64,000 nucleotides of DNA from Patescibacteria group bacterium (GCA_004297205.1 SCUL01000002.1:786893-850892), one strand, 5' to 3'; positions 19,648-55,339 are shown, numbered from the stretch's first letter. The notes: generated from the letters alone by a model not told the origin. Translations and numbers: made by a program.

Positions 19648-21570
19648 TTATCGAGGTGGCTTGCTGCGCCCGATGCCGATGTAGCTGCTGGAGCTGCTCT
19701 TGCCTGCGCCGGCGCGGAAGATGCTGGCGCGATCACCCGTCGCCGGGGTCTCCATGATGTCGCGTACCATCTTGTCCATCTTCTGGAATTGGATGACTTC
19801 CTGGGAGGTCATGGTTTCTTTCGGCCTCGGCCCGCCGCCGAACAGCCGGCGGAAGAAACCGACCTTGGGCTGCGGCTTCATGGCCTCGGCCAGCCGCGCG
19901 TTGTCTTTCATCAACAGTTCCCAGTACATGGCGGAGAACTTGTCCATGTCCGCGCGCTCTTCGAAGGAGCGCTTGGGATCGCGTACGGCGGCGAGGCTGA
20001 ACGCCTCCATGAAATCGGTCTTGTTGGAGAAGTCGCGGGCGCTTTTGGCTTCGATGTTGCCGATCTCGGCCGCGGCCCGGTTCACGTCCATGTCAGGATA
20101 CAGCTCTTGGGCGCGTTCGCGGCGGGCGAGTTCCTCCGGTTTTTCTCCCTGTGCGAACCAAGCTTCCTCTTCACCCGGCTTCAGCTCGTTGCGCTCGCGG
20201 CGCAGCCGATCCTGTTCGGCGCGGACCTTGGCTTGGAGTTCGTCGATGCGCGCATTGACTCGTTCAACGGAACCCCGGCCAATTTCAGCGGCTTTGGCGG
20301 TTGCTTCGGCTCGGAAACGCGCTCTGAACTCTTCGTCGGTTTCCGCGACGGGTTCCACGGGCAGGTTCTCCGGCACGTTGGTGTCCGGCCCGGCTTCCAT
20401 GGCGCCGACCAACTCGTTGGCCTGGCGACGGGCGGTTTCCTCCGCGGTCGGCGGGGGAGGCAGGTTGCGCAACTCCTCGAGCGCGGCGGCTGTTTCGGTC
20501 GGCGCCTTACCGAGTTTGACTTTCTGTTCGTCCAGCCATGTGCGGAACTCCGCGGCGCTTTTTGCTTTCTCGCCCGCCTTGCTGCGGGCTTCGCTCTCGG
20601 CCAGGCCGGCGGCGATGATGGCGGCCATCTCCTGCTTCGCGCGGCGGCGCTCTTCGAGGCGGGCGCGGAATTCGGCCGCTGCCGTTTCTGCCGCCTCGAT
20701 GTTTGCTTTCTCTTTGACGGCCTTCCTGGTGCGCTCGATCAACTCGCGCTGCTTGGCCGCGGCGCGTTCAGCGCCCGCCGTTTCGTCTGAGACGTAGCGG
20801 TCCCACATCTTGCGGGCCTTGGAAATGTCTTTGACGCGGCTCTGGAAAGCATCCGCGCTCATGTCGCCCCGGCCGTAGCGGTCGAGTGCGTCCTCCACGG
20901 TTTGTACGGCACCGCGGATCAGCGACTCGCCGGCCTTGGGCAGCGCACCCGATTCGAGCGCCTGGCTGTAGGTATTTCGGAGGTCAACCAGCACCGCACG
21001 ATCCGTTTCCGCGGCCTCAAAACTTTCCCGTGCAGCCTCCCGGCCCTTGATGCGTGCCGCGCTGCTGCGCTTGAGGGTGCCCTTGGCAAGCAAACGGTCT
21101 TCTTTCTCCCACGGGACGTCTCCCTTGAGCGCGTGGACGCGCTGGCGCAGGCTGTCGATGCCGTTCGCCAGCGCGGCGCGGGCCTCTGGGTCGGTTTCCG
21201 TCTCCAACTGCTCGGCCGTCAGGTCGTACTGTTTCTGGAGGTCCTTGAGTTGCGTCTTCAGGTCGGACGGTTGTTCGCGCAGCCTTTCTGGAACGCGGAC
21301 GGTCTGGGTGGTCTCGCGCGGCATTTCCATGCGCGCGTAGTCCTCGGCGTGTTCGTCGATGAAGGCTTGGAGCGGGGCGATCTCCTCATCAATTTTTTTG
21401 AGTTCGGCAGCGGAAGCGCCTTCGCCTTCGAGCCGGGCGCGTTCGGCCTGCAACTCGAACATCCGGGCCGAGACGTCGCCAAGATAGGCCTCGTTGATTT
21501 CGGTGCTTTCCACTTTCTTCGGCTCCTGCTCCGCGGCGTTGCGCCGCATGTCCCGTGCCCCTTCAGCCAT
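19648..21570 (-). CDS. large hypothetical protein, highly charged (E/R/A/K-rich), predicted all-alpha/coiled-coil, no TM segment
   Basis: 640 aa; high GC3 codon bias; upstream on the minus strand a TATACT hexamer and SD-less leader; no domain recognised. Confidence 0.55.
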   Translation of the reverse strand: MAEGARDMRRNAAEQEPKKVESTEINEAYLGDVSARMFELQAERARLEGEGASAAELKKIDEEIAPLQAFIDEHAEDYARMEMPRETTQTVRVPERLREQPSDLKTQLKDLQKQYDLTAEQLETETDPEARAALANGIDSLRQRVHALKGDVPWEKEDRLLAKGTLKRSSAARIKGREAARESFEAAETDRAVLVDLRNTYSQALESGALPKAGESLIRGAVQTVEDALDRYGRGDMSADAFQSRVKDISKARKMWDRYVSDETAGAERAAAKQRELIERTRKAVKEKANIEAAETAAAEFRARLEERRRAKQEMAAIIAAGLAESEARSKAGEKAKSAAEFRTWLDEQKVKLGKAPTETAAALEELRNLPPPPTAEETARRQANELVGAMEAGPDTNVPENLPVEPVAETDEEFRARFRAEATAKAAEIGRGSVERVNARIDELQAKVRAEQDRLRRERNELKPGEEEAWFAQGEKPEELARRERAQELYPDMDVNRAAAEIGNIEAKSARDFSNKTDFMEAFSLAAVRDPKRSFEERADMDKFSAMYWELLMKDNARLAEAMKPQPKVGFFRRLFGGGPRPKETMTSQEVIQFQKMDKMVRDIMETPATGDRASIFRAGAGKSSSSSYIGIGRSKPPR

Positions 21571-22191: not shown

Positions 22192-22239
22192 ACACCCTGT
22201 TCATAACAGATTGCGCCTATGCCCCCGCGTGGAGAAGGA

Positions 22240-22920
22240 ATGGGCTCGCCCATGAGCGAAGTGGAAAGCGAATTGGCCGATGTGCACAAGATGGAGAAGG
22301 AACGCGCCGAGGCGGTCCGTTCTCCGGAAGAGCGCGTCGCGGATGTTGTGGCGTTGTGGGGTCGGTCGGACCGCGAGCGCATGAATCCGGACGATCTGGC
22401 CAAGTCCCTTGTCCAGATGGATCGACTGGTCCGTGATATTGAATTGCTTTCCGAGTCGTCTCCCGAACAAGGCGCGACTTTGGCGCTTGCGGACAAGATC
22501 GCGAAAGACGTCGAGGGACGCGCGCAGAAGCGCGAAGTGAGCGAGCAGCGGGAGTGGATGCTGCGGCTGCAGACCGCCAAGGACATCCATGACCTCGCCG
22601 AGGGCATCAACGACGCCGAGCAGCTCACCTTCGAGGCCGTCCTCGAATCACAGAAGGCGCCGGAGCAGATCGGTCTTCAGATGCGCCTGGACATCGCCCG
22701 CTCCGCACAGCGCAGCTACGAGGCGCTGGCCGGACAGGTCTATGAGATGATCAAAGAGGGCAAGAACCTGCCTCAGGGCCATCGCACCCAGCTCATCGAG
22801 CAGGGCAAGCGCTTGGTCGGGCTCATCAAGCATGAGCAGCAGATCTCCGAGCTGGCGGAACGCAATTTCCTCGACAACCTCGAAGCGCAGGTCGCCAAAG
22901 CCGAACGTGAAGCCGCCTAA
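22240..22920 (+). CDS. hypothetical coiled-coil protein
   Basis: 226 aa acidic/helical; start chosen at the ATG with SD GGAGAAGGA (the track ORF begins at 22219). Confidence 0.5.
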   Translation: MGSPMSEVESELADVHKMEKERAEAVRSPEERVADVVALWGRSDRERMNPDDLAKSLVQMDRLVRDIELLSESSPEQGATLALADKIAKDVEGRAQKREVSEQREWMLRLQTAKDIHDLAEGINDAEQLTFEAVLESQKAPEQIGLQMRLDIARSAQRSYEALAGQVYEMIKEGKNLPQGHRTQLIEQGKRLVGLIKHEQQISELAERNFLDNLEAQVAKAEREAA

Positions 22921-25683: not shown

Positions 25684-27807
25684 TTACGTGGGAATCCGCA
25701 GTACCAGGTGGGGACGCTCCGAGGTATTTTTGAGCCGCTCGGAGTTGGTTTTTGCGCTGCGGTTGGGGTCGCCTTTGAGTTCGGCCAGGATTTTTTCGAT
25801 GCCCTCGGTGCCGACGCGCTCCTGCTGGCCCAGCACGAATTCTTCGGCTGAGGAGGGAACGATGACAATCTGGTCGCCGGCCTGGACGCCGATATCGACG
25901 GCGGCATTGGCCTGCTGACTGACTGTCCGCTTGGTGGTGGAGAGGATGCGCTGCGCTTCCTTGTCTTCCTGATTGACCTCCAGATCCTCCGAAGTTTTTC
26001 CGGCTTTCGCGCCGGTATCCACCTTCGTGACTTTGCCGTCGCGGCCGACCTTGAGGACGGTCAGGGCTTCACCGGGCTTGCCGCGGAGCATCAGACGGCG
26101 GGCCTGGAGCAGTTCGGTGGCCTGCTTCGACTCAATGACGCCCAGGTTCTTCAACCGTTGCACGACCACGAACCGGCCCTCGCGCGACAAGCCCGTGAAG
26201 CGCGGGTCCTTCAGGAGCGCCATAGGATTCTCCTCAGCCCGCTTCATTTCGTAGGTCAGGTCGTCGGCCGTCTTGCTTTCCCCCTCGGAGAGCGACGGTT
26301 CGATCAGACGGTCGGCTTTTTCCGGGTCCTTGGGGGCGGCCGATTCGAAGCTGCGCAGCAGCAATTCCAGATTCGTCTCCGGCGGGTACGACAGCGCCTG
26401 GTAGAGCGCCAGTCGCTCCGCGGGGGATTCCAACAGTCGCTGGACCGACGGGGAGTTCAGGAACGTCATAGCTGCCTGGGTGGCGGCGTTTCGTTCCGTA
26501 GCGGTCTTGGGGTCCCGGATTTTTTTGAAGAAGGAGTTGAGTTTTTCCGCGCTGCCCTTGACCGCGGCCGCCGCCTCGGGGGAGAGTTCGGGCGCGGAAA
26601 AATTCTTGGCCGTTTCCGGCGTCAGCATGATTTCCACTTTCAGCCGTTCGAGGAGGATAGGCAGTGTTTCCGTGGCGAGCTTGGCGAGTTCTGGATCGTT
26701 TTTCAGTTCGCGGTAGGTTTCCTCGAACTGTTCGTCCGTTTGCGTCAACCGGGCCTGCCGTGTTTCTTCCAGCTTGCGGGCCAAGATCTTGGCGACTTCC
26801 ATGTTGTTCATCAGCTGCTGATGTTCCGGACCGACCGCAGTCAGCGCCTCTTGCGCCTCGTACACCTTGCTGATGTAGGCGCGTTGCTCCGGATTGAGCG
26901 ATTCATCGCCGTCGAGATCGGATTTCGTCGGCCACTTGATGAGCGGATCGCCGCCCAACCAATTTTTGACTTCGGCGCGGATGGCGTCGTATTTGGTTTT
27001 GGCGTCCTCAACGTTCTGTGTGGAGGCGCGTTCCTGCTCTTCCAATCCGCGCGTGCCTTTGTTCACGAGTTCCCCGATCACGGCTTTCAGTTCGGCCTTG
27101 GATTTGTCATCGCCGTAGAATTCCTGCGGCGTGATCTCCTCGTTAAACACCTGGCCGACGACGAAAGGGGGGACTTCGATGGCCGAGGCCTTGTCGCCGC
27201 GCGCCAGCTTGTGGGCGTTCTCGCGGACCACGGCGTCGAGCGCGCCGCGTGAAGCCGCGGACATGAGCCGCGTGTCGATCGACGAGGCGCGGGCGCGGGA
27301 CGTTTCCCCGTGGGCCAGGCTGACCGCCTTCTGCTCCGGCCCCGAAGATTCCTTCAAGCGTTCCAATGCGGAGTCAACGATGCCTTCGACGGCCGTCGGT
27401 TCGGCGTTTTCCCCGGCGACGAAAATGAAGGTCCCACTGTCCGGGTTGACGTCCAGGCCGGCCTTCCCGCGTTTGCCGGCCACATTGCTGGCGGCTTCGA
27501 ACACCGGACCTTTCGGTTCCTGCTCACGTACGGTTTCGGGAGCCGTGGGGGCGATCTCGGGCTTGGCGCCGGGGCGGGAGGTCCGTTTCCGTTCCACGTC
27601 GGATTCCGCCGGCTGTTCGGCAACGTCGATCTCCTTCAAGCTGCTGTCCGCCAGATAGGTCTGCCCGGTCACGTCGATGCGCGGCGGCGGGGGCGGTACG
27701 TAGTCCTTCGGAACCGCCCTTTCCGGGGGCACGGGCGGTACGGGAGATTCGCGGCGCAGCGGCCGCTTCGTCGAACCGCCTTTTTCCGTCATGGTTCCGC
27801 GTTCCAT
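25684..27807 (-). CDS. large hypothetical protein with a Pro-rich N-terminus and a long charged helical body; paralog of 23368..25146
   Basis: ~708 aa; start uncertain (ATGs at 27807 and 27792; the track ORF extends to 27894 and would overlap miaA). Confidence 0.55.
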   Translation of the reverse strand: MERGTMTEKGGSTKRPLRRESPVPPVPPERAVPKDYVPPPPPRIDVTGQTYLADSSLKEIDVAEQPAESDVERKRTSRPGAKPEIAPTAPETVREQEPKGPVFEAASNVAGKRGKAGLDVNPDSGTFIFVAGENAEPTAVEGIVDSALERLKESSGPEQKAVSLAHGETSRARASSIDTRLMSAASRGALDAVVRENAHKLARGDKASAIEVPPFVVGQVFNEEITPQEFYGDDKSKAELKAVIGELVNKGTRGLEEQERASTQNVEDAKTKYDAIRAEVKNWLGGDPLIKWPTKSDLDGDESLNPEQRAYISKVYEAQEALTAVGPEHQQLMNNMEVAKILARKLEETRQARLTQTDEQFEETYRELKNDPELAKLATETLPILLERLKVEIMLTPETAKNFSAPELSPEAAAAVKGSAEKLNSFFKKIRDPKTATERNAATQAAMTFLNSPSVQRLLESPAERLALYQALSYPPETNLELLLRSFESAAPKDPEKADRLIEPSLSEGESKTADDLTYEMKRAEENPMALLKDPRFTGLSREGRFVVVQRLKNLGVIESKQATELLQARRLMLRGKPGEALTVLKVGRDGKVTKVDTGAKAGKTSEDLEVNQEDKEAQRILSTTKRTVSQQANAAVDIGVQAGDQIVIVPSSAEEFVLGQQERVGTEGIEKILAELKGDPNRSAKTNSERLKNTSERPHLVLRIPT

Positions 27808-27856
27808 AGGATCGCAGCCATTGTAGCCAATGGGGCTCATCAGGTATAGAGGAGGC

Positions 27857-28753
27857 ATGGCCGCGGAACAACTGATCGCCGTCGTCGGCCCCACCGCCTC
27901 CGGAAAGACCGCGCTTGCGGTCCGCTTGGCGCTGGCATTCGACGGCGAACTCGTGTCCGCGGATTCCCGCCAGGTCTACCACGGCATGGACATCGGCACC
28001 GGCAAGGAGCGCGATCCGCTGCCCGGGCCGGACGGCGTTCCAACGCTTCTCGGCGTGCCGCAGCACTTGATCGACCTCGTGGAGTCGGATGAAGCGTTCT
28101 CGCTGGCCGACTGGCAGAAGCGCGCCTTCGCCGTCATCGCAGACGTCCTCGGGCGCGGCAAGCTGCCGATCCTCGTCGGCGGGACCGGGCTTTATGTGAA
28201 AGCCGTGGTCGATGCCCTCGATTTGCCGGACGCGCCGCCGGATCTGGGGCTGCGACGCCGCCTCGAAGGGAAAACGTCGTCCGAGTTGCTCTGGGAGCTG
28301 CGCGACCTTGATCCGGACAAAGCCAAGACCATCGACCGTTTCAACAAGCGGCGGCTGATTCGCGCCATCGAGATCGCCCGGGCCGCCGTGGCGGGGGAGG
28401 AGCATGCCGTCGGCAAGGAGTGGCCGCACTACGACGTGTTGCAGATCGGCATCGACCTGCCGCGGGAGGAGTTGTACCGCCGGATCGATGCCCGCGTTGA
28501 CGAACAGATGGCGCGCGGCCTGGCCGGCGAGGTGGCCGGTCTCGTGAAGCGTTACGGGAAAGAATTGCCGGCGCTCTCCGGCATCGGCTATCAGGAGCTG
28601 GTGGACTCGGCGCCGGACGCGGTGCAGCGCATCAAATTCGACACCCATGCCTACGCCCGCCGCCAGATGACCTGGTTCCGCAAGGACAAGCGCATCCATT
28701 GGGTCGCCGACCAGGAAGAGGCCGTGGCATTGGCCCAAGTATTTTTGGCGTAG
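27857..28753 (+). CDS. miaA: tRNA dimethylallyltransferase
   Basis: P-loop VVGPTASGKTALAVRLA, DSRQVYHGMDIGTGK motif; start at the ATG after SD AGAGGAGG. Confidence 0.85.
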   Translation: MAAEQLIAVVGPTASGKTALAVRLALAFDGELVSADSRQVYHGMDIGTGKERDPLPGPDGVPTLLGVPQHLIDLVESDEAFSLADWQKRAFAVIADVLGRGKLPILVGGTGLYVKAVVDALDLPDAPPDLGLRRRLEGKTSSELLWELRDLDPDKAKTIDRFNKRRLIRAIEIARAAVAGEEHAVGKEWPHYDVLQIGIDLPREELYRRIDARVDEQMARGLAGEVAGLVKRYGKELPALSGIGYQELVDSAPDAVQRIKFDTHAYARRQMTWFRKDKRIHWVADQEEAVALAQVFLA

Positions 28754-29327: not shown

Positions 29328-30875
29328 TTATCCGGCCAATTCTTCGGCGAACAGTTTCTCCGTGGTCGTGGGATGGGCGCGGCCCTCGGTGGCTTTCATG
29401 GCCATGCCCACCAGCATTTTCAGCACCTGGGTTTTGCCGGCGCGGTATTGCGCGGCCGCGTCGGGGTTCTTGGCGATGATGTCGCGCACCACGGGGCGCA
29501 GCTCCTCCGGTTCGACGATTTGTCCGAGTCCGCGGTCCTCCATGATGTGGCTGGGATCTTTTCCGGTCTCCAGCATCTCGGCCAGGATGGCCTGTGCGGC
29601 GGTCGAGTTCACCTTCTGCGCCCAGATGAGCGAGAGGAATTCGGCGAAGTCCTCGGGGGAAATCTTCAGTTCGCCCCAGGCCAGGTTGCGTTCGGCCATC
29701 AGTCCGCCGAGCTTCGAGAGCAGCCAGCCGGACAGGAGCTTGGCGAGTTTTTCCTTGTGCTTTTCCCAAACTTCGGCGGCGCTGCCTTCGATTTCCGGCA
29801 GGGAAGAGAGCCAATCACCGAGTTCGGAGGCGACCTGTTCGACGTACGTCGCCAAGTCCGGCTCGGCCGCCATCTGGCGGGCGTCCGCGGGGGCGAATCC
29901 GTATTCGTCCATGAAACGGCGGCGCTTGGCGGCCGGAAGTTCCGGCAGCCCGCCTTCCCGTTTCACGATGTCAGCAAGCAAGAGCGGCGGCAGGTCCGGC
30001 TCCGGGAAGTACCGGTAATCGGCTTCGCCCTCTTTGGTACGCTGCGGCTCGGTCACGCCTTTGGCGTCGTTCCAGCCGCGCGTCTCGCGCAACGCAGGCG
30101 GCGTTCCTTCTTCAAAGAGCTTCGTCTGGCGCTGGATCTCGTACTCGAGCGCGCGCTCCACGGCGCGGAACGAGTTCAGGTTCTTGATTTCGGTCTTCGG
30201 GTTGAGCGTCAGGTCGATGATCGAGCCGTCGTCGTTGCTGCGGCGCAGGGAAATGTTGGCGTCGCAGCGCATGTGGCCGCGCTCCATGTCGGCGTCGGAC
30301 ACCTCGAGCGTGCGCAGGATGGCGCGGAATTCCTGGAGGAAGGCTTTTGCTTCGGCCGGGGAACGCAGGTCCGGCTTGGTAACGGTTTCAAGCAGTGGTG
30401 TGCCGGCGCGGTTGTAGTCCACGAGCGTCGCGCCTGCGGCATCGAGACCCGCGCGGTCGCCGGCGTGTACGTTTTTGGCGGCGTCCTCCTCGAGGTGGGC
30501 TCGTTCAATGCCGATCTCGGCCGAAGCGCGTCCAGCGCCGGCGGGAAAATCAATCGCGAGTTTTCCGTCGCGGCAGATCGGTTCGTCGTATTGCGAAATC
30601 TGATAGCCCTTCGGCAGGTCCGGGTAGAAGTAATGTTTGCGGTCGAACTTGGCCTGGTCGGGAATCGCGCAGCCGAGCGCGAGGCCGGCTTTGACGCCGA
30701 GGCGGACGGCCTGCGCGTTGGCAACAGGCAAGGTGCCCGGATGGCCCATGCAGATCGGACAGATGGCGGTGTTCGGCGCGGCGTCCTCGCCCGGGATCGG
30801 GCAGGCGCAGAACATTTTGCTCTTCGTGGCGAGCTGGACGTGGATTTCCAGTCCGATCACCGGCTCGTAGCGCAT
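29328..30875 (-). CDS. gatB: aspartyl/glutamyl-tRNA(Asn/Gln) amidotransferase subunit B
   Basis: 515 aa; canonical GatB N-terminus MRYEPVIGLEIHVQLATKSKMFCAC. Confidence 0.9.
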   Translation of the reverse strand: MRYEPVIGLEIHVQLATKSKMFCACPIPGEDAAPNTAICPICMGHPGTLPVANAQAVRLGVKAGLALGCAIPDQAKFDRKHYFYPDLPKGYQISQYDEPICRDGKLAIDFPAGAGRASAEIGIERAHLEEDAAKNVHAGDRAGLDAAGATLVDYNRAGTPLLETVTKPDLRSPAEAKAFLQEFRAILRTLEVSDADMERGHMRCDANISLRRSNDDGSIIDLTLNPKTEIKNLNSFRAVERALEYEIQRQTKLFEEGTPPALRETRGWNDAKGVTEPQRTKEGEADYRYFPEPDLPPLLLADIVKREGGLPELPAAKRRRFMDEYGFAPADARQMAAEPDLATYVEQVASELGDWLSSLPEIEGSAAEVWEKHKEKLAKLLSGWLLSKLGGLMAERNLAWGELKISPEDFAEFLSLIWAQKVNSTAAQAILAEMLETGKDPSHIMEDRGLGQIVEPEELRPVVRDIIAKNPDAAAQYRAGKTQVLKMLVGMAMKATEGRAHPTTTEKLFAEELAG

Positions 30876-30876: not shown

Positions 30877-31638
30877 TTAGGCGCGCGGACCGGACTCGGC
30901 CTTGAGGTTCAGGTAGAGGAGTGTGGTCACGGCCAGGAAGAACGGCGCCATCAGCGCGCCCACGGCGTCGGTGGCGATGCCGGCCGCGATCGTCAGCCAG
31001 AGCGGGGCATCCGCGGCGAGGCGCACGGTAAAGCTGCCGGCCGCGCCGTTCAGGAGGAAGACCACGAGCGCGGTCAGCACCCAGGTCACGAGCAGCCAGA
31101 AGACGTAGGGCGCGACCAGCCGCCAGAAGACCGGACCGAAGCGGCCGGTGACGAGCGATTTGCTCATCCCGAAGGCGCTGATCCAGCTGGCGCGGTCCAG
31201 GACGATGGCCTGCAGGATGAAGGCGAACCACACGGCCATGATGATCATGGGGACGACCAGCACTACGAGCCCGGCCAGCAACAGGATGCCGAGCGCGAGC
31301 GAGGCCAGGAAGACCGGGATTGCCAGCGGCAGTGCCGCGGCGAGCAGCGCGCCCAGCGGCGGCACCGGTTCTCCGGTGATCCCCGCAGCCACGGCGCGCG
31401 TCAGCGCGATCGTCTGGAGGATGGAAAGCACGACGAGCGGCAGGTAGACGGCAGCCGCGAGGACCATTTCATGCCACTGACCGAGACCGAGGTTTTGCCC
31501 GCGCAACATCTCAAAGGCCACGGTTCCGGCGATCGAGGGCACCAGGAAAATGCCGACGATCGGCAAAAAACGTCCGAGGTTGCGGCGGACGACTTCCCAG
31601 GAGCGGTCGATGATGTCTGCAGCGCCGAGCAAGGCCAT
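30877..31638 (-). CDS. hypothetical polytopic membrane protein
   Basis: 253 aa with ~6 TM helices; its stop abuts the gatB start. Confidence 0.55.
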   Translation of the reverse strand: MALLGAADIIDRSWEVVRRNLGRFLPIVGIFLVPSIAGTVAFEMLRGQNLGLGQWHEMVLAAAVYLPLVVLSILQTIALTRAVAAGITGEPVPPLGALLAAALPLAIPVFLASLALGILLLAGLVVLVVPMIIMAVWFAFILQAIVLDRASWISAFGMSKSLVTGRFGPVFWRLVAPYVFWLLVTWVLTALVVFLLNGAAGSFTVRLAADAPLWLTIAAGIATDAVGALMAPFFLAVTTLLYLNLKAESGPRA

Positions 31639-31641: not shown

Positions 31642-32358
31642 TTATGTCAGAAACGATGTCACGAGTGCCACGGAAGCGGCGCGCACCGCCGCCATGTCCG
31701 GTTCGGTGGAAAGCTCCGCAATGCGCGTGCCCCCGGCCGTAAAGACTTCCCGGAACCAGGCGGCGGCATAGCGTTCGGCCAGGGCCTCCAAATCGGCCCG
31801 CCGTTCAAAGCGCGAATCGTCATGTTTGCCGGCGCGCGCGGCCAGCCGGGAGAGCGCCGTATCCACGGACAGTGTAGCAAGGACGAGCAGGTCCGGGGAG
31901 TGCTCGAGCGCAAGCGCATTTCCGGGGATCGCCAGCACCTCTTCCAGGGAAACGTCCTCGCGGCCCGCTTGGTAGGCGATGGAGGAAGAGACGCCGCGGT
32001 CTTGGATCACGATCTTGCCGGCAGCGCGGGACGGGAGGACCACTTTCCGGTAATGGATTTCCCGGTCGAGCCCGAAGGCCTGGGCCGTGCTGCGGTTGCT
32101 GAAGGCGCTGTCGGTGCGGATGATCTCGGCGCGGATCGCTTTGCCGACCCAGACCGTGGACGGCTCGGCGGTGCAGACCACGTCGGCCGCGGCGATCTCC
32201 TCGGATGTCGGGTAGTCGCCGCGTTCCCGCCAGATGGACGGCACGTCGAGGACGCGCTTGCCGCCCGCGCTGAAAAAATCGCGCAGGGCGTCGCGGATCG
32301 TGCTTTTGCCCGAGCCGTCGATGCCGTCGATGATGACGTGGAATCCTTTAGCCGGCAT
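31642..32358 (-). CDS. tmk: thymidylate kinase
   Basis: HVIIDGIDGSGKST P-loop, Tmk DRY/lid-like regions; start placed at ATG MPAKGFH (the track ORF extends upstream into dut). Confidence 0.75.
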   Translation of the reverse strand: MPAKGFHVIIDGIDGSGKSTIRDALRDFFSAGGKRVLDVPSIWRERGDYPTSEEIAAADVVCTAEPSTVWVGKAIRAEIIRTDSAFSNRSTAQAFGLDREIHYRKVVLPSRAAGKIVIQDRGVSSSIAYQAGREDVSLEEVLAIPGNALALEHSPDLLVLATLSVDTALSRLAARAGKHDDSRFERRADLEALAERYAAAWFREVFTAGGTRIAELSTEPDMAAVRAASVALVTSFLT

Positions 32359-32782
32359 AGCCTCCGGTGGTGCCGAATCCGCCGCGACTCGCGCCGTCCA
32401 TGCGGTCGACTTCATCCCATTCGGCGCGGCCGATGGCCACGAAGATGGCTTGGCCGACGCGCTCCCCGCGTTCGACCGTGGTCGGTGCGGGCGTGAAATT
32501 CACGACTTGCAGTTTCAGTTCGTCCTCCGGGCCACAGTAATCCTGGTCGATGATGCCGAGCGGCAGGATCAATCCTTTCTTGCGCGCCGCGGAGGAACGT
32601 GAGGAGAGCAGCAGCGCGTAGCCTTCCGGGATTTTGACGACGACGTTCACGGGCAGGAGCGCAAAGGAGTGCGGCGCGATCGTGGTCGTCTCCCGCGTCA
32701 CCAAATCAAACGCCACGGCGCCCGCGGTTTCGTAGCGGGGGAGCGGCAGCGTCTTATCGATCCTTGAGACTCGGACCTGCAT
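32348..32782 (-). CDS. dut: dUTP diphosphatase
   Basis: All five dUTPase motifs: GAVAFDL, SRSSAARKKGL, GIIDQDYCG, GERVGQAIF, SRGGFGTTGGY. Confidence 0.8.
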   Translation of the reverse strand: MQVRVSRIDKTLPLPRYETAGAVAFDLVTRETTTIAPHSFALLPVNVVVKIPEGYALLLSSRSSAARKKGLILPLGIIDQDYCGPEDELKLQVVNFTPAPTTVERGERVGQAIFVAIGRAEWDEVDRMDGASRGGFGTTGGYAG

Positions 32783-33332
32783 ACCCGAACGCGGCCACCG
32801 CTTTCTCCACCTGGGCGTGCAGTTCCTCGAACGTGCCGTTGTTATCGACGGTGATCTCGGCTTCGCGGGCCACCTCGGCGATGGAGGTCTCGGTCGGCGC
32901 CTGTTCTTCCGTCATGAACTGCTCGAACGTCATGTCGGCCTCGCCGACTTTTTCGGCGCGCTTCACGGAGCGTTCCCAGCGCAGCTTGGCGTCGGCGGTC
33001 ACGTAGAGCAGGTGGAAACCGGAGATTTTGCGGAGCTCTTCGATGTCGGCGACGCGCCGGATGCCGTCGACGACGACGAGCGGCGACGTGTCCTTGGCCA
33101 CGTCCTCCGCCATGACGCGCGCGAACAGCGGTTCGCCGAAGGCGGCGCGCAGGTTCACGGAAATCTTGATGTAGTTCTCGCGCGTCAGCGGGATGTGGAG
33201 ACGCGTCAGCACGTCTTTGAGGATGCCGCCGAAGGAGTAGCAGCGCGCGCCGTGTTTCTCGATGAGGTGCTTGGCGATGGTGCCTTTGCCGCCGGCTTTT
33301 TCGCCGACGAGTCCGAGGATGAGGGTGGGCAT
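32754..33332 (-). CDS. phage-T4-gp1-like deoxynucleoside monophosphate kinase (P-loop)
   Basis: GLVGEKAGGKGTIAKHLI...FGGILKDVL, DGIRRV, ...PTETSIAEVAREAEITVDNNGTFEELHAQV; pattern resembles T4 dNMP kinase (SGVKRSGKDT...GPIKDAL...DTRQ...THITE...ITNDGSLEELF) by eye. Confidence 0.6.
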   Translation of the reverse strand: MPTLILGLVGEKAGGKGTIAKHLIEKHGARCYSFGGILKDVLTRLHIPLTRENYIKISVNLRAAFGEPLFARVMAEDVAKDTSPLVVVDGIRRVADIEELRKISGFHLLYVTADAKLRWERSVKRAEKVGEADMTFEQFMTEEQAPTETSIAEVAREAEITVDNNGTFEELHAQVEKAVAAFGYAGPSLKDR

Positions 33333-33333
33333 G

Positions 33334-33804
33334 TCAGGGTGTTTGGGGATGTTGGCGGAGAAGGACGCCCGCTTCGCGCATCAGTCCGCTGGCCGTCGCG
33401 GCCAGCGGGTATTCAGCCGTGTAGATGACTTCTTTGATGCCGGCGTTGATGATCATCTTCGCGCACAGCAGGCAGGGGGAGAAGGTGGAGTAGAGCACCG
33501 CGTCTTTGAGCGAGATGCCGTGGTAGGCGGCCTGGACGATGGCGTTCTCCTCGCCGTGCGAGCAGGTGCACTCCTCGAGTTTCGTCCCCGCCGACGCGTC
33601 GGTCCGCACCGCGCAGCGCGGGCAGCCGCCCTCGAAGCAGTTCTTGGTGTTGCGCGGCGTGCCGTTGTAGCCGGTCGAGATGATCCGCCGGTCGCGGACG
33701 ACAATGGCGGCCACCTGCCGCGTCAGGCAGTTGCTGCGGCGCGCCACTTCGCCCGCGATGTTCATGAAATAGTCGTCCCAGCCGGGACGCGCCGCATGGT
33801 CCAT
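33334..33804 (-). CDS. dCMP deaminase (cytidine/deoxycytidylate deaminase family)
   Basis: WDDYFM N-terminus, zinc ligands SHGEENAI and PCLLCAKMI. Confidence 0.75.
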   Translation of the reverse strand: MDHAARPGWDDYFMNIAGEVARRSNCLTRQVAAIVVRDRRIISTGYNGTPRNTKNCFEGGCPRCAVRTDASAGTKLEECTCSHGEENAIVQAAYHGISLKDAVLYSTFSPCLLCAKMIINAGIKEVIYTAEYPLAATASGLMREAGVLLRQHPQTP

Positions 33805-33870
33805 AGGTCCGAAATATCGTCCGCACCGTACCAAAAACCCGCCGGATGCGTCCAGCGGGTTTTTGCTTGA

Positions 33871-34554
33871 TTATGCGTAGGAGACTTTGATGCCCGGGCC
33901 CATCGTCGCGGCCGCCACCACCAGGAGGAGGTAGACGCCTTTGCTCGAGGGGGGCTTGAGGCGCTTCAGCGCTTCGATCGCGGCGCCGGCGTTCTCCAGG
34001 AGCTGCGCTTCGGAGAACGAGGCCTTGCCGATCGCGAAGTGGACGTTGCCGCCGTCGTCCGTCTTGAAGGCGAGTTTCCCCTTCTTGAGTTCGCCGACCA
34101 TTTTCTTGACGTCGGTGCCGACCGTTTCGGTTTTGGGGTTCGGCATGAGTCCCTTCGGACCGAGAATCTTCGCCACCTTGGCGAGCTTCGGCATCATGTC
34201 GGGCGTGGCCACGGCGATGTCGAAGTCGATTTTTCCGGTCTTGGCGATCTCGTCGATCAGCTCTTCGCCGCCGACGACGTCCGCGCCCGCTTCCTTGGCT
34301 TCCTTTTCTTTGGCGGACGAGACGATGGCCATGACCTTTTTGGACTTGCCGCCCGTGCCGTGCGGCAGGGACAGCGTGCCGCGGACCTGCTGCTCGCCCT
34401 TCTTGGGGTCGATGCCGAGGCGCACGTGCAGCTCGATCGTGGCGTCGAACTTGGTGTTGGCCGTCTTTTTGACGAGCGCGAAGGCCTCTTCTGGGGAGTA
34501 GGTTTTCTTTGGATCGATGAGCTTCTTGGCCTCCTGATAGCGCTTGCTGCGCAT
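33871..34554 (-). CDS. rplA: 50S ribosomal protein L1
   Basis: MRSKRYQEAKKLIDPKKTY...VRGTLSLPHGTGG...GPKGLMPNPK..., collinear with bacterial L1. Confidence 0.9.
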   Translation of the reverse strand: MRSKRYQEAKKLIDPKKTYSPEEAFALVKKTANTKFDATIELHVRLGIDPKKGEQQVRGTLSLPHGTGGKSKKVMAIVSSAKEKEAKEAGADVVGGEELIDEIAKTGKIDFDIAVATPDMMPKLAKVAKILGPKGLMPNPKTETVGTDVKKMVGELKKGKLAFKTDDGGNVHFAIGKASFSEAQLLENAGAAIEALKRLKPPSSKGVYLLLVVAAATMGPGIKVSYA

Positions 34555-34675: not shown

Positions 34676-35563
34676 TCACTGCGGCACCGAGACGGTGCGG
34701 GTGGCGATTTCGGTGCGCGGCCGCTCGCAGAATGGCACCGTGCCGCTGCCGCGATAGACCTTGTATTCGAGCATCGTCGGATCCGTCCAGCGGATTCTGA
34801 CGGATTCGGGCGGTCCGATTTCCGGTACGCATTCGGTCAGGCTTTCCCCGGCCGGCAGCCGGACGGCGACCGTCTGCTTGTCGTTCACGAAGTCGTAGAC
34901 CCACAGCTCGCGTTGCTCCTCGCCGGACGGACCGGTGTACCACATGCGACGTTGGTTCGGGGACAACAGGCTGCCCGCGATGTAGTGGTCGGGCGGGTTG
35001 ATGAGCGGGATGAAGGCGCGCAGCGCGGGGTCGAAGGCGATCGGCTGCGTCGCACCGGGCGCATCACAGCCGCCGGCGCAGCCGAAGGCGAAGATGGTGC
35101 GGGTGCTGCCGCTCGGCCGCGCCACGATGACGAGGGCGGAGTCCCCCGCCTTGAGCGCTGGGAGCAGGTCCGAGGCGTGTTCCACGAGCGTGAGATCGCC
35201 GGACTCCGACCGCCAGATCACTTTCTGGTCGACGATGACGACGTTGTCGGCGTCCATGGCGTTCACGAGTTCCACCTGGCCGCCCACAGGCAGGCCCGGT
35301 TCTTCGGCCGGTTCTTCCGCAGGCGTATTGGTATTCGCATTGGCGTTGCCGCCCGCGGCCGGAGCGTTCGCGTTGCTGTTTGCAGACGGGGCGCGTCCCA
35401 GGAGCTTCTTGCCCTGCGGGGAAGCGAGCAGGATGACGACCGTGCCGGCGAACAACACGAGCATCACGCCGAGCGCGATGAGGTAGCCGGTGCTGCCGTC
35501 CTGCTTTTTGGACGGGGCGGGGACGGACAGGTCTTCGGGCGCGGATTTTTTCTTCGGGGGCAT
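34676..35563 (-). CDS. hypothetical membrane-anchored protein (MPPKKK N-terminus, one TM helix, Ala/Asn/Glu-rich linker, extracytoplasmic domain) inserted between rplK and rplA
   Basis: ~295 aa from ATG MPPKKKSAPE; TM YLIALGVMLVLFAGTVVILL; high GC3. Confidence 0.55.
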   Translation of the reverse strand: MPPKKKSAPEDLSVPAPSKKQDGSTGYLIALGVMLVLFAGTVVILLASPQGKKLLGRAPSANSNANAPAAGGNANANTNTPAEEPAEEPGLPVGGQVELVNAMDADNVVIVDQKVIWRSESGDLTLVEHASDLLPALKAGDSALVIVARPSGSTRTIFAFGCAGGCDAPGATQPIAFDPALRAFIPLINPPDHYIAGSLLSPNQRRMWYTGPSGEEQRELWVYDFVNDKQTVAVRLPAGESLTECVPEIGPPESVRIRWTDPTMLEYKVYRGSGTVPFCERPRTEIATRTVSVPQ

Positions 35564-35573
35564 AGGTGCGGCG

Positions 35574-35615
35574 ATGGTAAAAGAAAAGACGAGTGGAGTA
35601 TACCACACGTCTTTT
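35574..35615 (-). terminator. intrinsic terminator after rplK (AAAAGACG...CGTCTTTT + CTTTTCTTTT) with a TATACT hexamer in the loop
   Basis: 8-bp stem, inner GTGG/CCAC pairing and a U-run, read on the minus-strand transcript. Confidence 0.55.
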
Positions 35616-37897: not shown

Positions 37898-40282
<2,385 letters not shown>

Positions 40283-40858
40283 TTAGGCGGAAACCGGCGC
40301 GATTTCGAGCTGGCGCATCGCTGCGCGCAGCGACTGGTGGAATCCTTCGAGCGGGACGCCGTCGTTCTGCACGTTGTAGGCGGCCATCCCCATGAGCAGC
40401 AAGATGCCCCGCTCCGTCGGGCTCTCCTCCCAGGCGCGGAACTGCGCGAAGGTCATCTGCCGCTCGTCCGGCTTCTCCGCCCGGCCGAGGCAGCGCATCC
40501 AACGCAGCTCGGCGTTGGCGCAGATCGCGACCAGCCGGAAGCCGGGGAGATCGACGAGCGCGTTGACTTGCCGGATGAAGCGGAAGCCCTCCGTCACGAC
40601 GAGCCGGGCGGGATCCGCCTCCACCCGCTCGCGCATGGCGCGGGCCAGCGGATCCTCGTTGGACCCGGAACCGCTCAGCTCGGCCCCGAGCGCGACCAGG
40701 GCCTCCCGCGTGTGCGGGATGTTCCGCTTCGTCGCCTCCTCGCGGACGAGGTCGCCGAAGGCATGGCGGCCGGCGCCGAACTCCCGCTCCAGGAATGTCG
40801 CCGCCGTGGTTTTGCCGGCGCCGGGCAATCCGACCAGTCCGATGATGACTTTGGGCAT
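40283..40858 (-). CDS. T4-gp1-like dNMP kinase, paralog of 32754..33332
   Basis: GLVGLPGAGKTTAATFL...FGDLVREEA, ...VTEGFRFIRQVNAL..., ...AICANAELRWMRCLGRAEKPDERQMTFAQFRAWEESPTE, collinear with the other copy. Confidence 0.6.
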   Translation of the reverse strand: MPKVIIGLVGLPGAGKTTAATFLEREFGAGRHAFGDLVREEATKRNIPHTREALVALGAELSGSGSNEDPLARAMRERVEADPARLVVTEGFRFIRQVNALVDLPGFRLVAICANAELRWMRCLGRAEKPDERQMTFAQFRAWEESPTERGILLLMGMAAYNVQNDGVPLEGFHQSLRAAMRQLEIAPVSA

Positions 40859-40926
40859 ATCTCCTCCCGCGTCAGATGTAGCGTACGGGGACGCGCCGGT
40901 CAATGCCGCATGATATACTGCGTGCG

Positions 40927-41793
40927 ATGGCCTTCATCCCCAACAACACGACGCCCGACAACCTCAGCGAGCAACAGTTTCAGGCGGCCAGCTGGTACGT
41001 CGAGCACAAGCTGCAGCTCAAGGCGGCACTGACCGTCTTTTTGGTGGTCTGGTGCGCGGCTTTCGGCGGCTACGCCATCTGGGGAATGGTGAAGCTGTTC
41101 CTGATCGAATATCCGGGCTATCGCCAGATGCAGCGCGATGCCGGCGTGAACTACGTGAATTTTGCGGCACTCGAGAACGCCCGCCCGATCGACGTGCGCA
41201 CGGTGCAGGTGTTCGCCGCCGGTGCCGGCAAGGCCGACGCCGTGGCCACCGTCCGCAACCCCAACGCCCGCTTCGCCGCGACCTTCCGCTACCAGTTCGT
41301 GGGCGAAGGCGCGACGCCGTCGGAACTCGAGGGTTTCCTCCTGCCCGGCGAAGAAAAACCGCTGCTCTCCCTCGGCATCCCGACGCAAACGTCTTTCCGC
41401 AGCGCGCGGCTCGAAATCCGCGACGTGCAATGGGCACGGCTCGACGCCCACGAGATTCCCGATTGGGCGGCCTACCGCACGGCGCGCATGGCGCTCTCCG
41501 GCGAGGAGGTCGTCTTCACGCCCGCGCAAACCCAGGGCCAGGTGTCGCGCGTCACCTTCACTGTCAAGAACGCTTCGGCCTACTCGTATTGGAACGTCCG
41601 TTTCATCGTCCTCTTGTACCGGGGCCAGTCCATCGCGGCCGTGAACGCCATCGACCTCTCCAGCCTGCGGACGGGGGAGAGCCGTCCGGCATCCGTCACC
41701 TGGTTTGAAAACGTTCCCTCCGTCACGAAAACCGAGATCCGTCCGGAAGTGAACATTTTGGACCAGTCTGCATTCATTGCGCCGGCGGGTTGA
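40927..41793 (+). CDS. hypothetical membrane-anchored protein (one TM helix, extracytoplasmic domain)
   Basis: ~288 aa; alternative ATG at 40903; TATACT at 40914-40919 lies 7 nt before the 40927 ATG, suggesting a leaderless transcript. Confidence 0.45.
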   Translation: MAFIPNNTTPDNLSEQQFQAASWYVEHKLQLKAALTVFLVVWCAAFGGYAIWGMVKLFLIEYPGYRQMQRDAGVNYVNFAALENARPIDVRTVQVFAAGAGKADAVATVRNPNARFAATFRYQFVGEGATPSELEGFLLPGEEKPLLSLGIPTQTSFRSARLEIRDVQWARLDAHEIPDWAAYRTARMALSGEEVVFTPAQTQGQVSRVTFTVKNASAYSYWNVRFIVLLYRGQSIAAVNAIDLSSLRTGESRPASVTWFENVPSVTKTEIRPEVNILDQSAFIAPAG

Positions 41794-41883
41794 GCGCGCG
41801 CGACCCATTGACGCCGCGGGCTTTTTTTGATACATCGCAGATACGACATTCGCTGATAAGCAGAACAGCGGTGGAGGTAGAAG

Positions 41884-42843
41884 GTGAAACTGTCGGAACC
41901 CTATCAGGAGATCGTGGATTCCTGCCGTATCGGCAGCACGGACCTGGTGGAGTTTCCCGCACCAGGTTCACGCAACCGCATCTTTGCAAAGCTCGAGTAT
42001 CAGAACCACACGGGTAGTCATTACGATCGGGTCTACCCCTGGCTGCTCGACCAGCTCGAGCGGGAGGGGAAGATCCACCCCGCCCACTCGATACTCGTAG
42101 AGACGACCTCGGGTAACGCGGGGATATCATGCGGCTTCGTCGCTCAGCGTCGCGGCTATCGCACCATCATCTTCACGCCAGCCGGAGCCCGTCCGCGTTG
42201 CAACCAGTTGATGCGCGGATACGGGGTCGACGTCCGAGAGGTCTCCGGCGCCGACTACGTCGCCGATGCTCGGGACGCGATGGTCACACTCCTGCGTGAA
42301 CACGTCGATGCGCGCAGCGGAGGGTTCCGGATGTACTATTCGCCGAACCACTCCCAGCTGGAGATATCATGCAAGGCGCTTGTGCCGATCGTCACCGAGG
42401 CGCTGGCGCAGGCCGGAGGGTCGTTCGATTGCTTTATCGGCGCCGCCGGGAATGGGTCGACGCTCCGGGGAATGGGGGATGCGTTGCGTCGCGACAACCC
42501 GAAGATCCGAATGTTCGGCTTCGATCCGGCCGCGGCCCCGAACGCCTACCAGATCAAGTACGGGAGGATTCCAGGGCACACGCCGCGCGTTCACCAGCTG
42601 TTTGGGGTCGGTGTCTGGGATGTCGAGTTCCCGCACCTGACCTACGCCGTGCGACAGCTGCTCGAAGACGTGATGATCGTCGAGGACGAACAGTGGCGTC
42701 AGACACAGCTGGAGCTGAGGGCGATCGGGTACGACGTGGGCAACACGTCCGCGGCCGCGTACCACCTCGCTCGCGACTTTTGCCGCCGTCACGACAACCA
42801 GCGTATCCTCATCGTCTTCTACGATGCCGCCGACCACTACTGA
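41884..42843 (+). CDS. tryptophan-synthase-beta/cysteine-synthase-fold (PLP fold type II) protein in which the canonical PLP lysine is replaced by Tyr
   Basis: AKLEYQNHTGSHYDR aligns by eye with CysK AKVESRNPSFSVKCR (K->Y); Gly-rich loop GAAGNGSTLRG; 319 aa. Confidence 0.6.
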   Translation: MKLSEPYQEIVDSCRIGSTDLVEFPAPGSRNRIFAKLEYQNHTGSHYDRVYPWLLDQLEREGKIHPAHSILVETTSGNAGISCGFVAQRRGYRTIIFTPAGARPRCNQLMRGYGVDVREVSGADYVADARDAMVTLLREHVDARSGGFRMYYSPNHSQLEISCKALVPIVTEALAQAGGSFDCFIGAAGNGSTLRGMGDALRRDNPKIRMFGFDPAAAPNAYQIKYGRIPGHTPRVHQLFGVGVWDVEFPHLTYAVRQLLEDVMIVEDEQWRQTQLELRAIGYDVGNTSAAAYHLARDFCRRHDNQRILIVFYDAADHY

Positions 42844-50150: not shown

Positions 50151-50210
50151 CGCCGGCCGCTGCCGCGGATAAGGTTTGCCGGGTCAATCGTGGCCCGAGA
50201 GGAGAGAAGC

Positions 50211-51218
50211 ATGGATTTCGATCGGTTGCCGGAGCTCGGGCACGTCCTGAGCGTCGATCAGTTCGACCGGCCGTTCCTGGATAAGATCTGCGACGTCACG
50301 CAGGAGATCCGCGAGTTGCGCGACAAGCCGGACGGCAAGCGGCTGCTCAAGGAGCAGTTCGCGGACCGCACGGCCATGCTCTACTTCACGCAGCCGAGCT
50401 CGCGGACGTACACGTCGTTCGCGGTGGCCTGCCAGGAGCTCGGCGTCAGCATCGTGGACGTCCGTGATCCCCACACCTCCTCCGAGGTGAAGGAGGAGAG
50501 CCTGCTCGACTCGATCCGGACGTTCTCGTCGTACGTCGACGTGCTCATCATGCGGTCGCCCGTGGAGGGATTGGCGCGTGACGCCGCCGCGTACTTGGAC
50601 GCGACGCCACGCCCCCGGCCGATCGTGAACGCGGGCAACGCCAAGGACGAGCACCCCACCCAGGCGCTGCTCGACATTTACACGATGCGCCGGTCGTTCA
50701 AGGACCGGGGCGGCGTGGACGGGAAGACTGTCGCCTTCGTCGGGGACCTGGCGCGCAGCCGGGTGGTGCGCTCGCTGGCCAAGCTCATGTACCACTACTA
50801 CGACATGCAGCTCTTGCTGGTGTCGCCGCCGGAGTTCCGCATGAAGCCGGACATCCTCGCGCACCTCGACCAGCACCGGGTGCGATACGAGGAGACCGCC
50901 GACTTCAACGGCGCGGTGCGCCAGGCGGACGTGGTGTACATGACGCGCGTCCAGGACGAGCACGACGCGGCGGACGGCACGCGCTCCCCGCGGTCGTTCC
51001 CGGAGTTCCACTTCACGCAGGAGCATCTGGGGATTCTGCGGCCGGAGGCCATTGTCATGCATCCTGGTCCGCGGCGGGACGAGCTCGACCCGGCGACCGA
51101 CGACGACCCGCGCAGCAAGTACTGGCGCCAGATGCGCAACGGCAAGCATCTGCGTGAGGCGGTCATCGCCTGCATCCTTGCCACGCTGCAGCGCAAGCGC
51201 AACGAACGGCGGCGCTAG
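50211..51218 (+). CDS. pyrB: aspartate carbamoyltransferase-family protein (pyrB-like)
   Basis: SD GAGAGGAGAGAAGC before the ATG; carbamoyl-phosphate motif appears as SSRTYTSF (variant of STRTR); HPTQAL and HPGP motifs present. Confidence 0.65.
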   Translation: MDFDRLPELGHVLSVDQFDRPFLDKICDVTQEIRELRDKPDGKRLLKEQFADRTAMLYFTQPSSRTYTSFAVACQELGVSIVDVRDPHTSSEVKEESLLDSIRTFSSYVDVLIMRSPVEGLARDAAAYLDATPRPRPIVNAGNAKDEHPTQALLDIYTMRRSFKDRGGVDGKTVAFVGDLARSRVVRSLAKLMYHYYDMQLLLVSPPEFRMKPDILAHLDQHRVRYEETADFNGAVRQADVVYMTRVQDEHDAADGTRSPRSFPEFHFTQEHLGILRPEAIVMHPGPRRDELDPATDDDPRSKYWRQMRNGKHLREAVIACILATLQRKRNERRR

Positions 51219-53724: not shown

Positions 53725-53729
53725 GCGAC

Positions 53730-53767: not shown

Positions 53768-53769
53768 CA

Positions 53770-55332: not shown

Positions 55333-55339
55333 AGGAAAT

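Follow-up and report, generated by a model that had tools for sequence, protein, structure and literature searches.

A P-loop kinase of the DNMK/UPF0200 superfamily in a dTTP-synthesis operon conserved across Patescibacteria

We analyzed a stretch of 64,000 nucleotides, referred to below as the window, from a metagenome-assembled genome (MAG) of a Patescibacteria group bacterium (GCA_004297205.1 SCUL01000002.1:786893-850892), which amounts to 64 of the 856 kb of that genome. A block of four genes at positions 31642 to 33804 encodes a dCMP deaminase, a P-loop kinase (K1), a dUTPase, and a thymidylate kinase (Tmk), and a paralog of the kinase (K2) is encoded next to gyrB. We consider it probable that the block represents, in this genome, an operon for dTTP synthesis that Patescibacteria have conserved in the interval between rplA and gatB, with K1 as the housekeeping deoxypyrimidine kinase of that operon. 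The points of interest are K1 itself, which is a conserved, unannotated kinase of the DNMK/UPF0200 type, its homology with the kinase domain found in anti-phage dCTP deaminases, and the apparent loss of thymidylate synthase from the operon in the lineage of the window.

Organization of the gene block

The genes for the deaminase, K1, dUTPase, Tmk, and K2 were all found on the minus strand and had a coding-type composition, with a G+C content at the third codon position (GC3) of 0.79-0.88 in a window of 63-68% G+C. Their coordinates and those of the flanking features are as follows (aa, amino acids; ORF, open reading frame).

33334-33804, minus strand: dCMP deaminase, 156 aa from an ATG, with an alternative TTG start at 33834; Pfam dCMP_cyt_deam_1
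32754-33332, minus strand: K1, a P-loop protein of the nucleoside monophosphate (NMP) kinase fold, DNMK/UPF0200 superfamily, 192 aa; annotated as 'hypothetical protein EPO33_05415'
32348-32782, minus strand: dUTPase, 144 aa; Pfam dUTPase
31642-32358, minus strand: Tmk (thymidylate kinase), 238 aa from an internal ATG, the ORF reaching 32415 (257 aa); TIGR00041
40283-40858, minus strand: K2, a divergent paralog of K1, 191 aa; annotated as 'hypothetical protein EPO33_05465'
30877-31638, minus strand: DUF7847-type membrane protein (PF25231), often encoded by the last-but-one gene of the operon
29328-30875, minus strand: gatB, conserved downstream neighbor (ORF translation; GatB_N/GatB_Yqey domains in orthologs)
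33871-34554, minus strand: rplA, conserved upstream neighbor (Ribosomal_L1 in orthologs)
33832-33865, minus strand: hairpin with a U-run, resembling an intrinsic terminator, located between rplA and the gene for the deaminase, at the upstream edge of the operon (RNA fold)
40272-40298, minus strand: terminator-like hairpin at the K2 stop codon, on the boundary of K2 and gyrB, with an 11-bp stem followed by CTTTTTTATT

As read from the sequence, the deaminase and K1 genes are separated by a single nucleotide, K1 and dUTPase overlap by 29 nt (as they do in the two close relatives L007 and L008), and dUTPase and Tmk overlap by 11 nt. The ORF coordinates give spacers of 3 nt between Tmk and the DUF7847-type gene and of 1 nt between the latter and gatB, and the six genes from the deaminase to gatB are packed as one unit. 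The hairpin between rplA and the deaminase gene had a folding energy of -34.2 kcal/mol (z = -5.3), and none of 200 shuffled sequences was equally stable.

The family assignments of the three enzymes around K1 turned out to be straightforward. The deaminase passed Pfam dCMP_cyt_deam_1 (PF00383) with 87 bits at a cut-off of 25, matched the dCMP deaminase family phrog_174 with an E value of 1.7e-46, has the zinc motifs H-x-E and P-C-x-x-C in the form of HGEENA and PCLLC, and is labeled 'dCMP deaminase family protein' at NCBI. The dUTPase passed the trimeric dUTPase family PF00692 (73.7 bits, cut-off 22) and contains motifs 3 and 5 (GIIDQDYCG and RGGFGTTG); its score with NF001862, 95.8 bits, was slightly below the cut-off of 103. 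Tmk passed the equivalog TIGR00041 (88.6 bits, cut-off 83.25) and scored 81.4 bits with Pfam Thymidylate_kin, and its 238-aa start is the one used by its relatives and by the Logan gene call. Despite passing TIGR00041, Tmk is listed at NCBI as 'hypothetical protein EPO33_05405' with the longer, 257-aa start. Coordinates, family scores, and junctions thus agree with the first-pass annotation, which had described four abutting or overlapping genes for a dCMP deaminase, a P-loop kinase, a dUTPase, and Tmk.

The operon across Patescibacteria

A scan of species-representative genomes yielded 80 loci, all of them from Patescibacteria, whose ORFs were classified with phmmer; 51 of the loci had enough flanking sequence to be scored for gene content. 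The window's own genome is absent from the species representatives, and the best match to it was 81%. The counts at the 51 loci, which were chosen for having K1 and are therefore conditional on K1 and no measure of its frequency in the phylum, were as follows.

gatB at the K1 cluster: 45/51 loci
dCMP deaminase in the cluster: 44/51 loci
Tmk in the cluster: 41/51 loci
rplA at the cluster: 34/51 loci
dUTPase in the cluster: 34/51 loci
ThyA in the cluster: 25/51 loci
Long tandem-domain ThyX in the cluster: 21/51 loci
ThyX in the cluster: 3/51 loci
DUF7847 at the same operon position: 14/51 loci
MazG in the cluster: 9/51 loci
At least two kinases of the K1 family in the cluster: 9/51 loci

A thymidylate synthase was thus found in the K1 cluster at 49 of the 51 loci, and the deaminase gene directly adjoined K1 at 37 of 70. 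The usual layout, as seen in a gene-called contig of another lineage, is rplA, deaminase, K1, dUTPase, ThyA, dihydrofolate reductase (DHFR), Tmk, DUF7847, and gatB, while the gene-called contigs of Moraniibacteria have the order rplA, a second kinase (K2L), deaminase, K1, ThyX, MazG, and gatB. Since the arrangement recurs in dozens of species, it is far beyond chance. The synteny extends throughout the phylum, and K1, which is strongly conserved, belongs to the core of the operon. The view of the block as an oddity of a reduced genome or a phage-like import had to be abandoned, as the block belongs to a phylum-wide dTTP operon that normally includes ThyA plus DHFR or ThyX.

The long ThyX genes, which were confirmed as Pfam Thy1, encode proteins of 429-583 aa, some of them with two Thy1 stretches (loci L013, L020, L031, L041, L048, L058-L061, L067, L071, L072, L074, L082, and L090), and a profile search with ThyX returned 6,628 relatives. 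Many of the related MAG records (L012-L091) bear the title 'uncultured Gammaproteobacteria bacterium', although by gene content and best matches they are Patescibacteria, and the labels look like placeholders or errors.

Conservation of K1 and divergence of K2

The proteins of the window were compared with their counterparts in the two close relatives. The identities were as follows.

K1: 85% to L007, 81% to L008
dCMP deaminase: 90% to L007, 82% to L008
GyrB: 88% to L007, 84% to L008
RplA: 82% to L007, 83% to L008
Tmk: 69% to L007, 68% to L008
K2: 37% to the syntenic ortholog of L007; gene absent in L008

K1 is conserved to the same degree as gyrB. The second kinase, K2, lies upstream of gyrB at 40283-40858 and shares 37% identity with K1 in an alignment of 181 aa (E value of 2e-35), in keeping with the collinear paralog adjoining gyrB of the first-pass annotation. 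In a rough neighbor-joining tree, which is indicative only at such divergence, K2 and its L007 copy formed a long-branched group separate from the clades of K1 and of the K2L of Moraniibacteria. The neighborhood of K2 is variable, as the region upstream of gyrB (including 40903-42843, plus strand) contains a gene for a pyridoxal phosphate-dependent enzyme (PALP, 144 bits; 41884-42843) that has no counterpart in L007 or L008, and a sigma-70 gene stands between the K2 copy and gyrB in L007 only. Judged from these comparisons, K2 would be an accessory, lineage-specific, rapidly diverging, and nonessential paralog with a terminator of its own, and its specificity is probably different or relaxed.

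Family, fold, and catalytic residues of the kinases

K1 is identical to NCBI TAK05372.1, which is encoded on a contig of 855,898 bp. In curated libraries, both kinases are hit only by generic families (AAA_17 and AAA_18), AAA_17 being the Pfam hit of K1. Over their full length, however, the two proteins matched the phage deoxynucleoside monophosphate (dNMP) kinase family phrog_139, K1 with an E value of 1.9e-15 (residues 1-180) and K2 with one of 2.3e-11; T4 gp1 belongs to the same family with 1.8e-65. We then compared profiles by hhalign, using 28 Patescibacteria kinases on one side and six proteins of the T4 gp1 family on the other. The profile of the K1 family matched that of the T4 gp1 family end to end, at 98.1% with an E value of 1.2e-13 over 160 columns, while hhalign runs of single sequences against T4 gp1, Adk, and CoaE gave short local matches only and were nondiscriminating. 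The Pfam DNMK family was passed by the phage homologs and by K2L (30.6-44.1 bits), and K2 had no match to it.

The best NCBIfam matches of both kinases, again over the full length, were to PRK08356 (NF006226, UPF0200), with 68.9 bits for K1 and 33.6 bits for K2. The solved structure closest in sequence was that of SSO1041 from Sulfolobus solfataricus (3lw7/3h0k; E value of 4.9e-12 for K1 and 1.5e-5 for K2). The AlphaFold (AF2) models were confident, with a mean predicted local distance difference test score (pLDDT) of 90.8 for K1 and 92.7 for K2, and Foldseek placed 3lw7 at rank 1 for both (template modeling [TM] score of 0.70-0.84), followed by short adenylate kinases and UMP-CMP kinases. The two kinases are thus nearer, in sequence and in fold, to the archaeal UPF0200/PRK08356 proteins represented by SSO1041 than to DNMK.

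The residues that are invariant in the family alignment are G7, G15, K16, and T18 of the P-loop, R51, R92 (within VVVDGIRR), and R118 and R121 of the LID. Both K1 and K2 have the NMP-kinase fold; their P-loop is intact, and they carry the DG-x-R motif and the LID arginines. In an alignment, the DG-x-R motif of K1 (VVVDGIRR) falls opposite LIDGYPR in adenylate kinase 1, and the corresponding arginine of adenylate kinases contacts the phosphate of the acceptor. Since the DG-x-R arginine of K1 aligns with this phosphate-contacting residue, an acceptor of the NMP type is likeliest for K1.

One superfamily unites K1 and K2 with the T4 gp1-type dNMP kinases, the kinases of Bacillus phages, and the UPF0200 proteins of archaea, and it also takes in the kinase domain found in anti-phage dCTP deaminases. 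The family comprises 17,346 representative clusters at an E value of ≤1e-3 and 5,980 at ≤1e-10. The likeness of the kinase to T4 gp1 claimed by the first-pass annotation, for which a hidden Markov model search for the T4-type family had been proposed, holds at the level of the superfamily (phrog_139 over the full length and the 98.1% hhalign match); at the level of Pfam DNMK it does not, K1 being below the gathering score and K2 without a match.

The family also includes fusion proteins (P0052, P0061, P0065, and P0143), in which two kinases are joined in tandem (379-395 aa) or, in a single case, a kinase is joined to a dUTPase (376 aa). As Rosetta-stone evidence, this last protein, P0143, was downgraded, as it comes from a single contig of 1.3 kb, the two genes normally overlap out of frame, and a frameshift artifact is possible. 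Literature searches for UPF0200, SSO1041, and PRK08356 found nothing directly relevant, and the same was true of searches on the domains of AvcD and on this operon in Patescibacteria.

Apparent loss of thymidylate synthase from the operon in the lineage of the window

The 64-kb window encodes no ThyA, ThyX, or DHFR detectable by tblastn (best E value of 0.06-0.1) and no hydroxymethylase; the first-pass annotation, too, had placed neither a thymidylate synthase nor a hydroxymethylase in the window. Two close relatives share its layout, in which the dUTPase gene overlaps Tmk directly. Among the 51 loci, a synthase was missing only from L012, a close relative of the window, and from one locus at which the cluster is broken after K1. 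Since the relatives share the synthase-free layout while 49 of the 51 loci have a synthase, thymidylate synthase and DHFR appear to have been lost from an otherwise intact operon in this lineage, to which we infer the window, L007, and L008/L012 to belong.

Presumably, the synthase is encoded elsewhere in these genomes or dTMP is salvaged. The profile search with ThyX gave no match on the contig of the window genome among the 120 listed of the 6,628 matches. The lineage may have no thymidylate synthase at all, though both of its dUMP-producing enzymes stay strongly constrained. The departure of the synthase from the operon bears on whether these organisms are thymidine auxotrophs.

Role of K1 and alternative explanations

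dCMP deaminase and dUTPase both give dUMP, thymidylate synthase makes dTMP, and Tmk makes dTDP. In the operon, the dUTPase and the deaminase would supply dUMP and Tmk would phosphorylate dTMP, with K1 acting as a housekeeping deoxypyrimidine (d)NMP kinase whose substrate is predicted from context and conserved residues. Interconversion of dCMP and dCDP by K1 would best complete the pathway, as it would link the products of the reductase to the deaminase and set the split between dCTP and dTTP; a broader dNMP range, like that of T4 gp1, is possible as well. For K1, we regard the role of a housekeeping pyrimidine (d)NMP kinase as the most likely one, perhaps with dCMP/dCDP as its substrates.

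Several observations weigh against this assignment. K1 scored 24.1 bits with Pfam DNMK (PF21448), below the gathering score of 27.1, over residues 6-46 only, and it failed the curated cut-off of every named family, including the 189 bits of PRK08356, which K2 failed too. The direct match of K1 to the T4 gp1 structure (1dek) was marginal (E value of 0.41) and confined to the P-loop; K1 has LID arginines that are absent from the T4 gp1 family, and it is without the T4 insertion of about 70 residues. The nearest structure, 3lw7, was crystallized with AMP and is labeled adenylate-kinase-related ('AdkA-like'). If the genome has a canonical Cmk elsewhere, a dCMP kinase role of K1 would be redundant, and the sampling of loci by the presence of K1, mentioned above, has the same bearing.

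A different role for the kinases, which we regard as possible but not likely, is that K1, K2, or both are broad-specificity (d)NMP kinases replacing a missing Cmk, Gmk, or PyrH in a reduced genome. T4 gp1, a relative of the family, phosphorylates dGMP, dTMP, and hydroxymethyl-dCMP (hm-dCMP), and the K2L of Moraniibacteria matched the phage 'guanylate kinase' family phrog_1815 over its full length (E value of 7e-9). In the window, rpsB-tsf is followed by gap and not by the usual pyrH-frr, and its 64 kb contain no gene for a P-loop protein resembling Cmk, Gmk, Adk, or Ndk. In another Patescibacterium, the adk slot next to cmk is taken by a K2-type kinase. The canonical NMP kinases have a patchy distribution in the phylum; according to a preprint, Gmk is absent from a cultivated member and PNPase plus Cmk is present in only 51% of genomes (doi 10.64898/2026.06.21.733656). 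However, the view of the genome behind this reading covers 64 of 856 kb, and the fixed position of K1 in the dTTP operon, beside a canonical Tmk, points to a role in pyrimidine deoxynucleotides rather than a general one. As for K2, absence from the sister genome and an identity of 37% to the syntenic ortholog are not expected of an essential sole kinase. Since K2 is fast-evolving and missing from a sister genome, an essential stand-in role is argued against, and K2 is unlikely to replace cmk or gmk.

The K2-type kinase in the adk slot is P0036 (L093, 620-1900), which is part of the ribosomal super-operon and immediately precedes cmk, map, and infA. In the window, the region 53721-56786 (plus strand) contains rpsB, tsf, two small ORFs, and gap (GAPDH), followed by genes for an FAD oxidoreductase, pgk, eno, and iPGM. 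Genes for an aspartate/ornithine carbamoyltransferase (OTCace_N plus OTCace; 50190-51218, plus strand) and a dihydroorotate-dehydrogenase-like protein (DHO_dh, 54 bits; 51716-52699, plus strand) lie side by side, a pair that hints at de novo pyrimidine synthesis, reportedly lacking in 93% of the phylum (recent preprint).

Less probable still, in our judgment, is that K1 (in relatives, K2L) serves the dCMP deaminase as a partner subunit instead of being a free kinase. It would then be the unfused counterpart of the kinase-like domain of AvcD and would either bind dCTP/dCDP, dephosphorylate it, or control the deaminase. In favor of this reading is the PADLOC dCTPase model (PDLC02373), which K1 matched at model positions 153-332 (E value of 3.9e-8) and the deaminase at 340-490 (2.5e-33). 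The same kinase segment was matched by SSO1041 (1.7e-20), by K2L (1e-9), and most strongly by P0036 (7.8e-25), and had no match in T4 gp1 or E. coli Adk; for this reason, we place the kinase-like domain of anti-phage dCTP deaminases in the UPF0200-like branch. In addition, the order K2L-deaminase of Moraniibacteria is collinear with the fused protein, only 1 nt separates the deaminase gene from K1 in the window, and the two genes adjoin each other at the 37 of 70 loci mentioned above. On the other hand, the window order, deaminase and then K1, is the reverse of that in the fusion, K1 has no detected deaminase nearby at 7 of the 51 well-flanked loci, and all the catalytic kinase residues are kept, which suggests real phosphotransfer.

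Nor do the genes qualify as AvcD-type enzymes. With NF041025 (cut-off of 400 bits), the deaminase scored 94.9 and K1 22.2 bits, the two proteins are encoded separately instead of being fused, and instead of a defense island, their setting throughout the phylum is a core operon flanked by rplA and gatB, with 81-90% identity in relatives. Because the scores are far below the cut-offs and the context is a core operon, homology to the AvcD-type enzymes is indicated, not membership. It is improbable, to the same degree, that the deaminase and its flanking DNMK/UPF0200-type kinase form a two-subunit housekeeping enzyme, an unfused equivalent of the AvcD-type deaminases from which the latter evolved, in which the kinase would hand over dCMP derived from dCDP/dCTP or gate the deaminase. 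If true, this would explain the source of dUMP in those Patescibacteria that reduce nucleoside triphosphates and have no dCTP deaminase, and it would link a housekeeping gene pair to the origin of the anti-phage dCTP deaminases.

Some database names would make K1 and K2 dephospho-CoA kinases or adenylate kinases, an identity that is very unlikely. The JGI name 'dephospho-CoA kinase' is attached to a few homologs, and some have precomputed CoaE matches, faint where a strength is given; the fold matches include AK1, UMP-CMP kinase, and CoaE, and the nearest structure is AdkA-like by its label and has AMP bound. However, neither kinase matched Pfam CoaE (PF01121) at an E value of ≤0.1, the score with TIGR00152 was 14.1 bits vs a cut-off of 65.55, and ADK (PF00406) had no match in K1 and only the 37 N-terminal residues of K2 (22.7 vs 26.8 bits). 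In single-sequence hhalign, E. coli CoaE reached 68% over the 62 C-terminal columns and Adk covered 37 columns, compared with 160 columns to the T4 family in the profile-profile comparison, and the dTTP-synthesis context is found both in the phylum and in phages. The matches to CoaE and Adk, being partial and below threshold, did not refute the dNMP kinase reading of the first-pass annotation.

The last proposal, a modified-base pathway fed by the K1/deaminase pair or a split anti-phage system of dCTP depletion, takes its appeal from the resemblance of the gene set to the dNTP-synthesizing enzymes of T4 and from the weak matches of the deaminase and K1 to anti-phage deaminase models, and is scarcely credible given the two scores far from 400 bits with NF041025, the absence from the window of a hydroxymethylase, glycosyltransferase, or other modification gene, the ordinary ThyA plus DHFR or ThyX of the relatives, and a core operon beside ribosomal genes that is conserved like gyrB and is no variable island; the modified-nucleotide pathway suggested earlier thus found no supporting sign.

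A housekeeping deoxypyrimidine kinase is accordingly the role that we favor for K1. Databases still list this core and highly conserved gene of the dTTP operon under the names 'hypothetical protein', 'AAA family ATPase', or 'dephospho-CoA kinase'. The superfamily assignment, together with the operon context, gives a testable function to the 5,980 representative clusters at an E value of ≤1e-10, the archaeal UPF0200 proteins included. A large part of bacterial diversity belongs to Patescibacteria, most of which rely on nucleotide salvage.

Other genes of the window

An ORF of 310 aa without a Pfam match lies between rplK and rplA (34676-35608, minus strand) and is found at the same place in close relatives with 46% and 67% identity; in another lineage, the slot between rplK and rplA is taken by a lactate/malate dehydrogenase gene. 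Other ORFs of good coding composition and without any Pfam match are located at 16218-17687 (489 aa), 19648-21570 (640 aa), 22219-22920 (233 aa), and 25684-27894 (736 aa), the last of which has 40-58% identity in relatives. Scans of the 64-kb window for tRNAs and, at the gathering score, for Rfam families gave none, including no ribosomal-protein leader near rplK/rplA.

Comparison with known systems

The operon contains the enzymes of the canonical dTTP route (ComEB-type deaminase of B. subtilis, Dut, ThyA, and Tmk), which convert dCMP to dUMP, dUTP to dUMP, and dTMP to dTDP. It differs in that the genes here form one operon beside rplA, with an extra DNMK-like kinase, and in that the lineage of the window has no thymidylate synthase in the operon. 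With AvcD/'dCTPase' (NF041025, PADLOC PDLC02373), the likeness is in the kinase-like and deaminase domains, which are homologous to K1/K2L and the adjacent deaminase; AvcD is a fused polypeptide in a defense context, whereas here there are two genes of a housekeeping operon, in the reverse order in the window.

SSO1041 (UPF0200/PRK08356; 3lw7 and 3h0k) is the best solved match in both sequence and fold, being of similar length and collinear throughout. It is, however, an archaeal and uncharacterized protein with 22-23% identity that was crystallized with AMP.

T4 gp1 (PF21448, phrog_139, 1dek) shares with K1 and K2 the P-loop G-x4-GK-[GD]-T followed by [FL]-[GA]-G-[IP]-[LI]-K-D, as well as the D-x-R motif and a C-terminal NDG/NNG-[ST]-x-EEL, and its gene is likewise associated with genes for dCMP deaminase, dUTPase, thymidylate synthase, and DHFR. 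In contrast to K1 and K2 (191-192 aa), T4 gp1 (241 aa) has an insertion of about 70 residues between the first helices and the core, which is also missing from short members of its family, and the R-x-x-R-x3-R LID of K1 and K2 is absent from the T4 gp1 family. K1 and K2 also differ from it in being cellular, chromosomal, and core proteins.

The closest phage homologs are the dephospho-kinase-like 'dNMP kinases' of Bacillus and Paenibacillus phages (Mater CPT_Mater213, vB_BceH_LY2 gp166, and Tripp gp80), which are 186-194 aa long and 22-31% identical over the full length; they differ in being phage encoded and in passing the Pfam DNMK cut-off, with 36-44 bits. In the Bacillus phages Mater and LY2, the K1 homolog is encoded between thyA and dhfr, an arrangement that parallels the operon of Patescibacteria.

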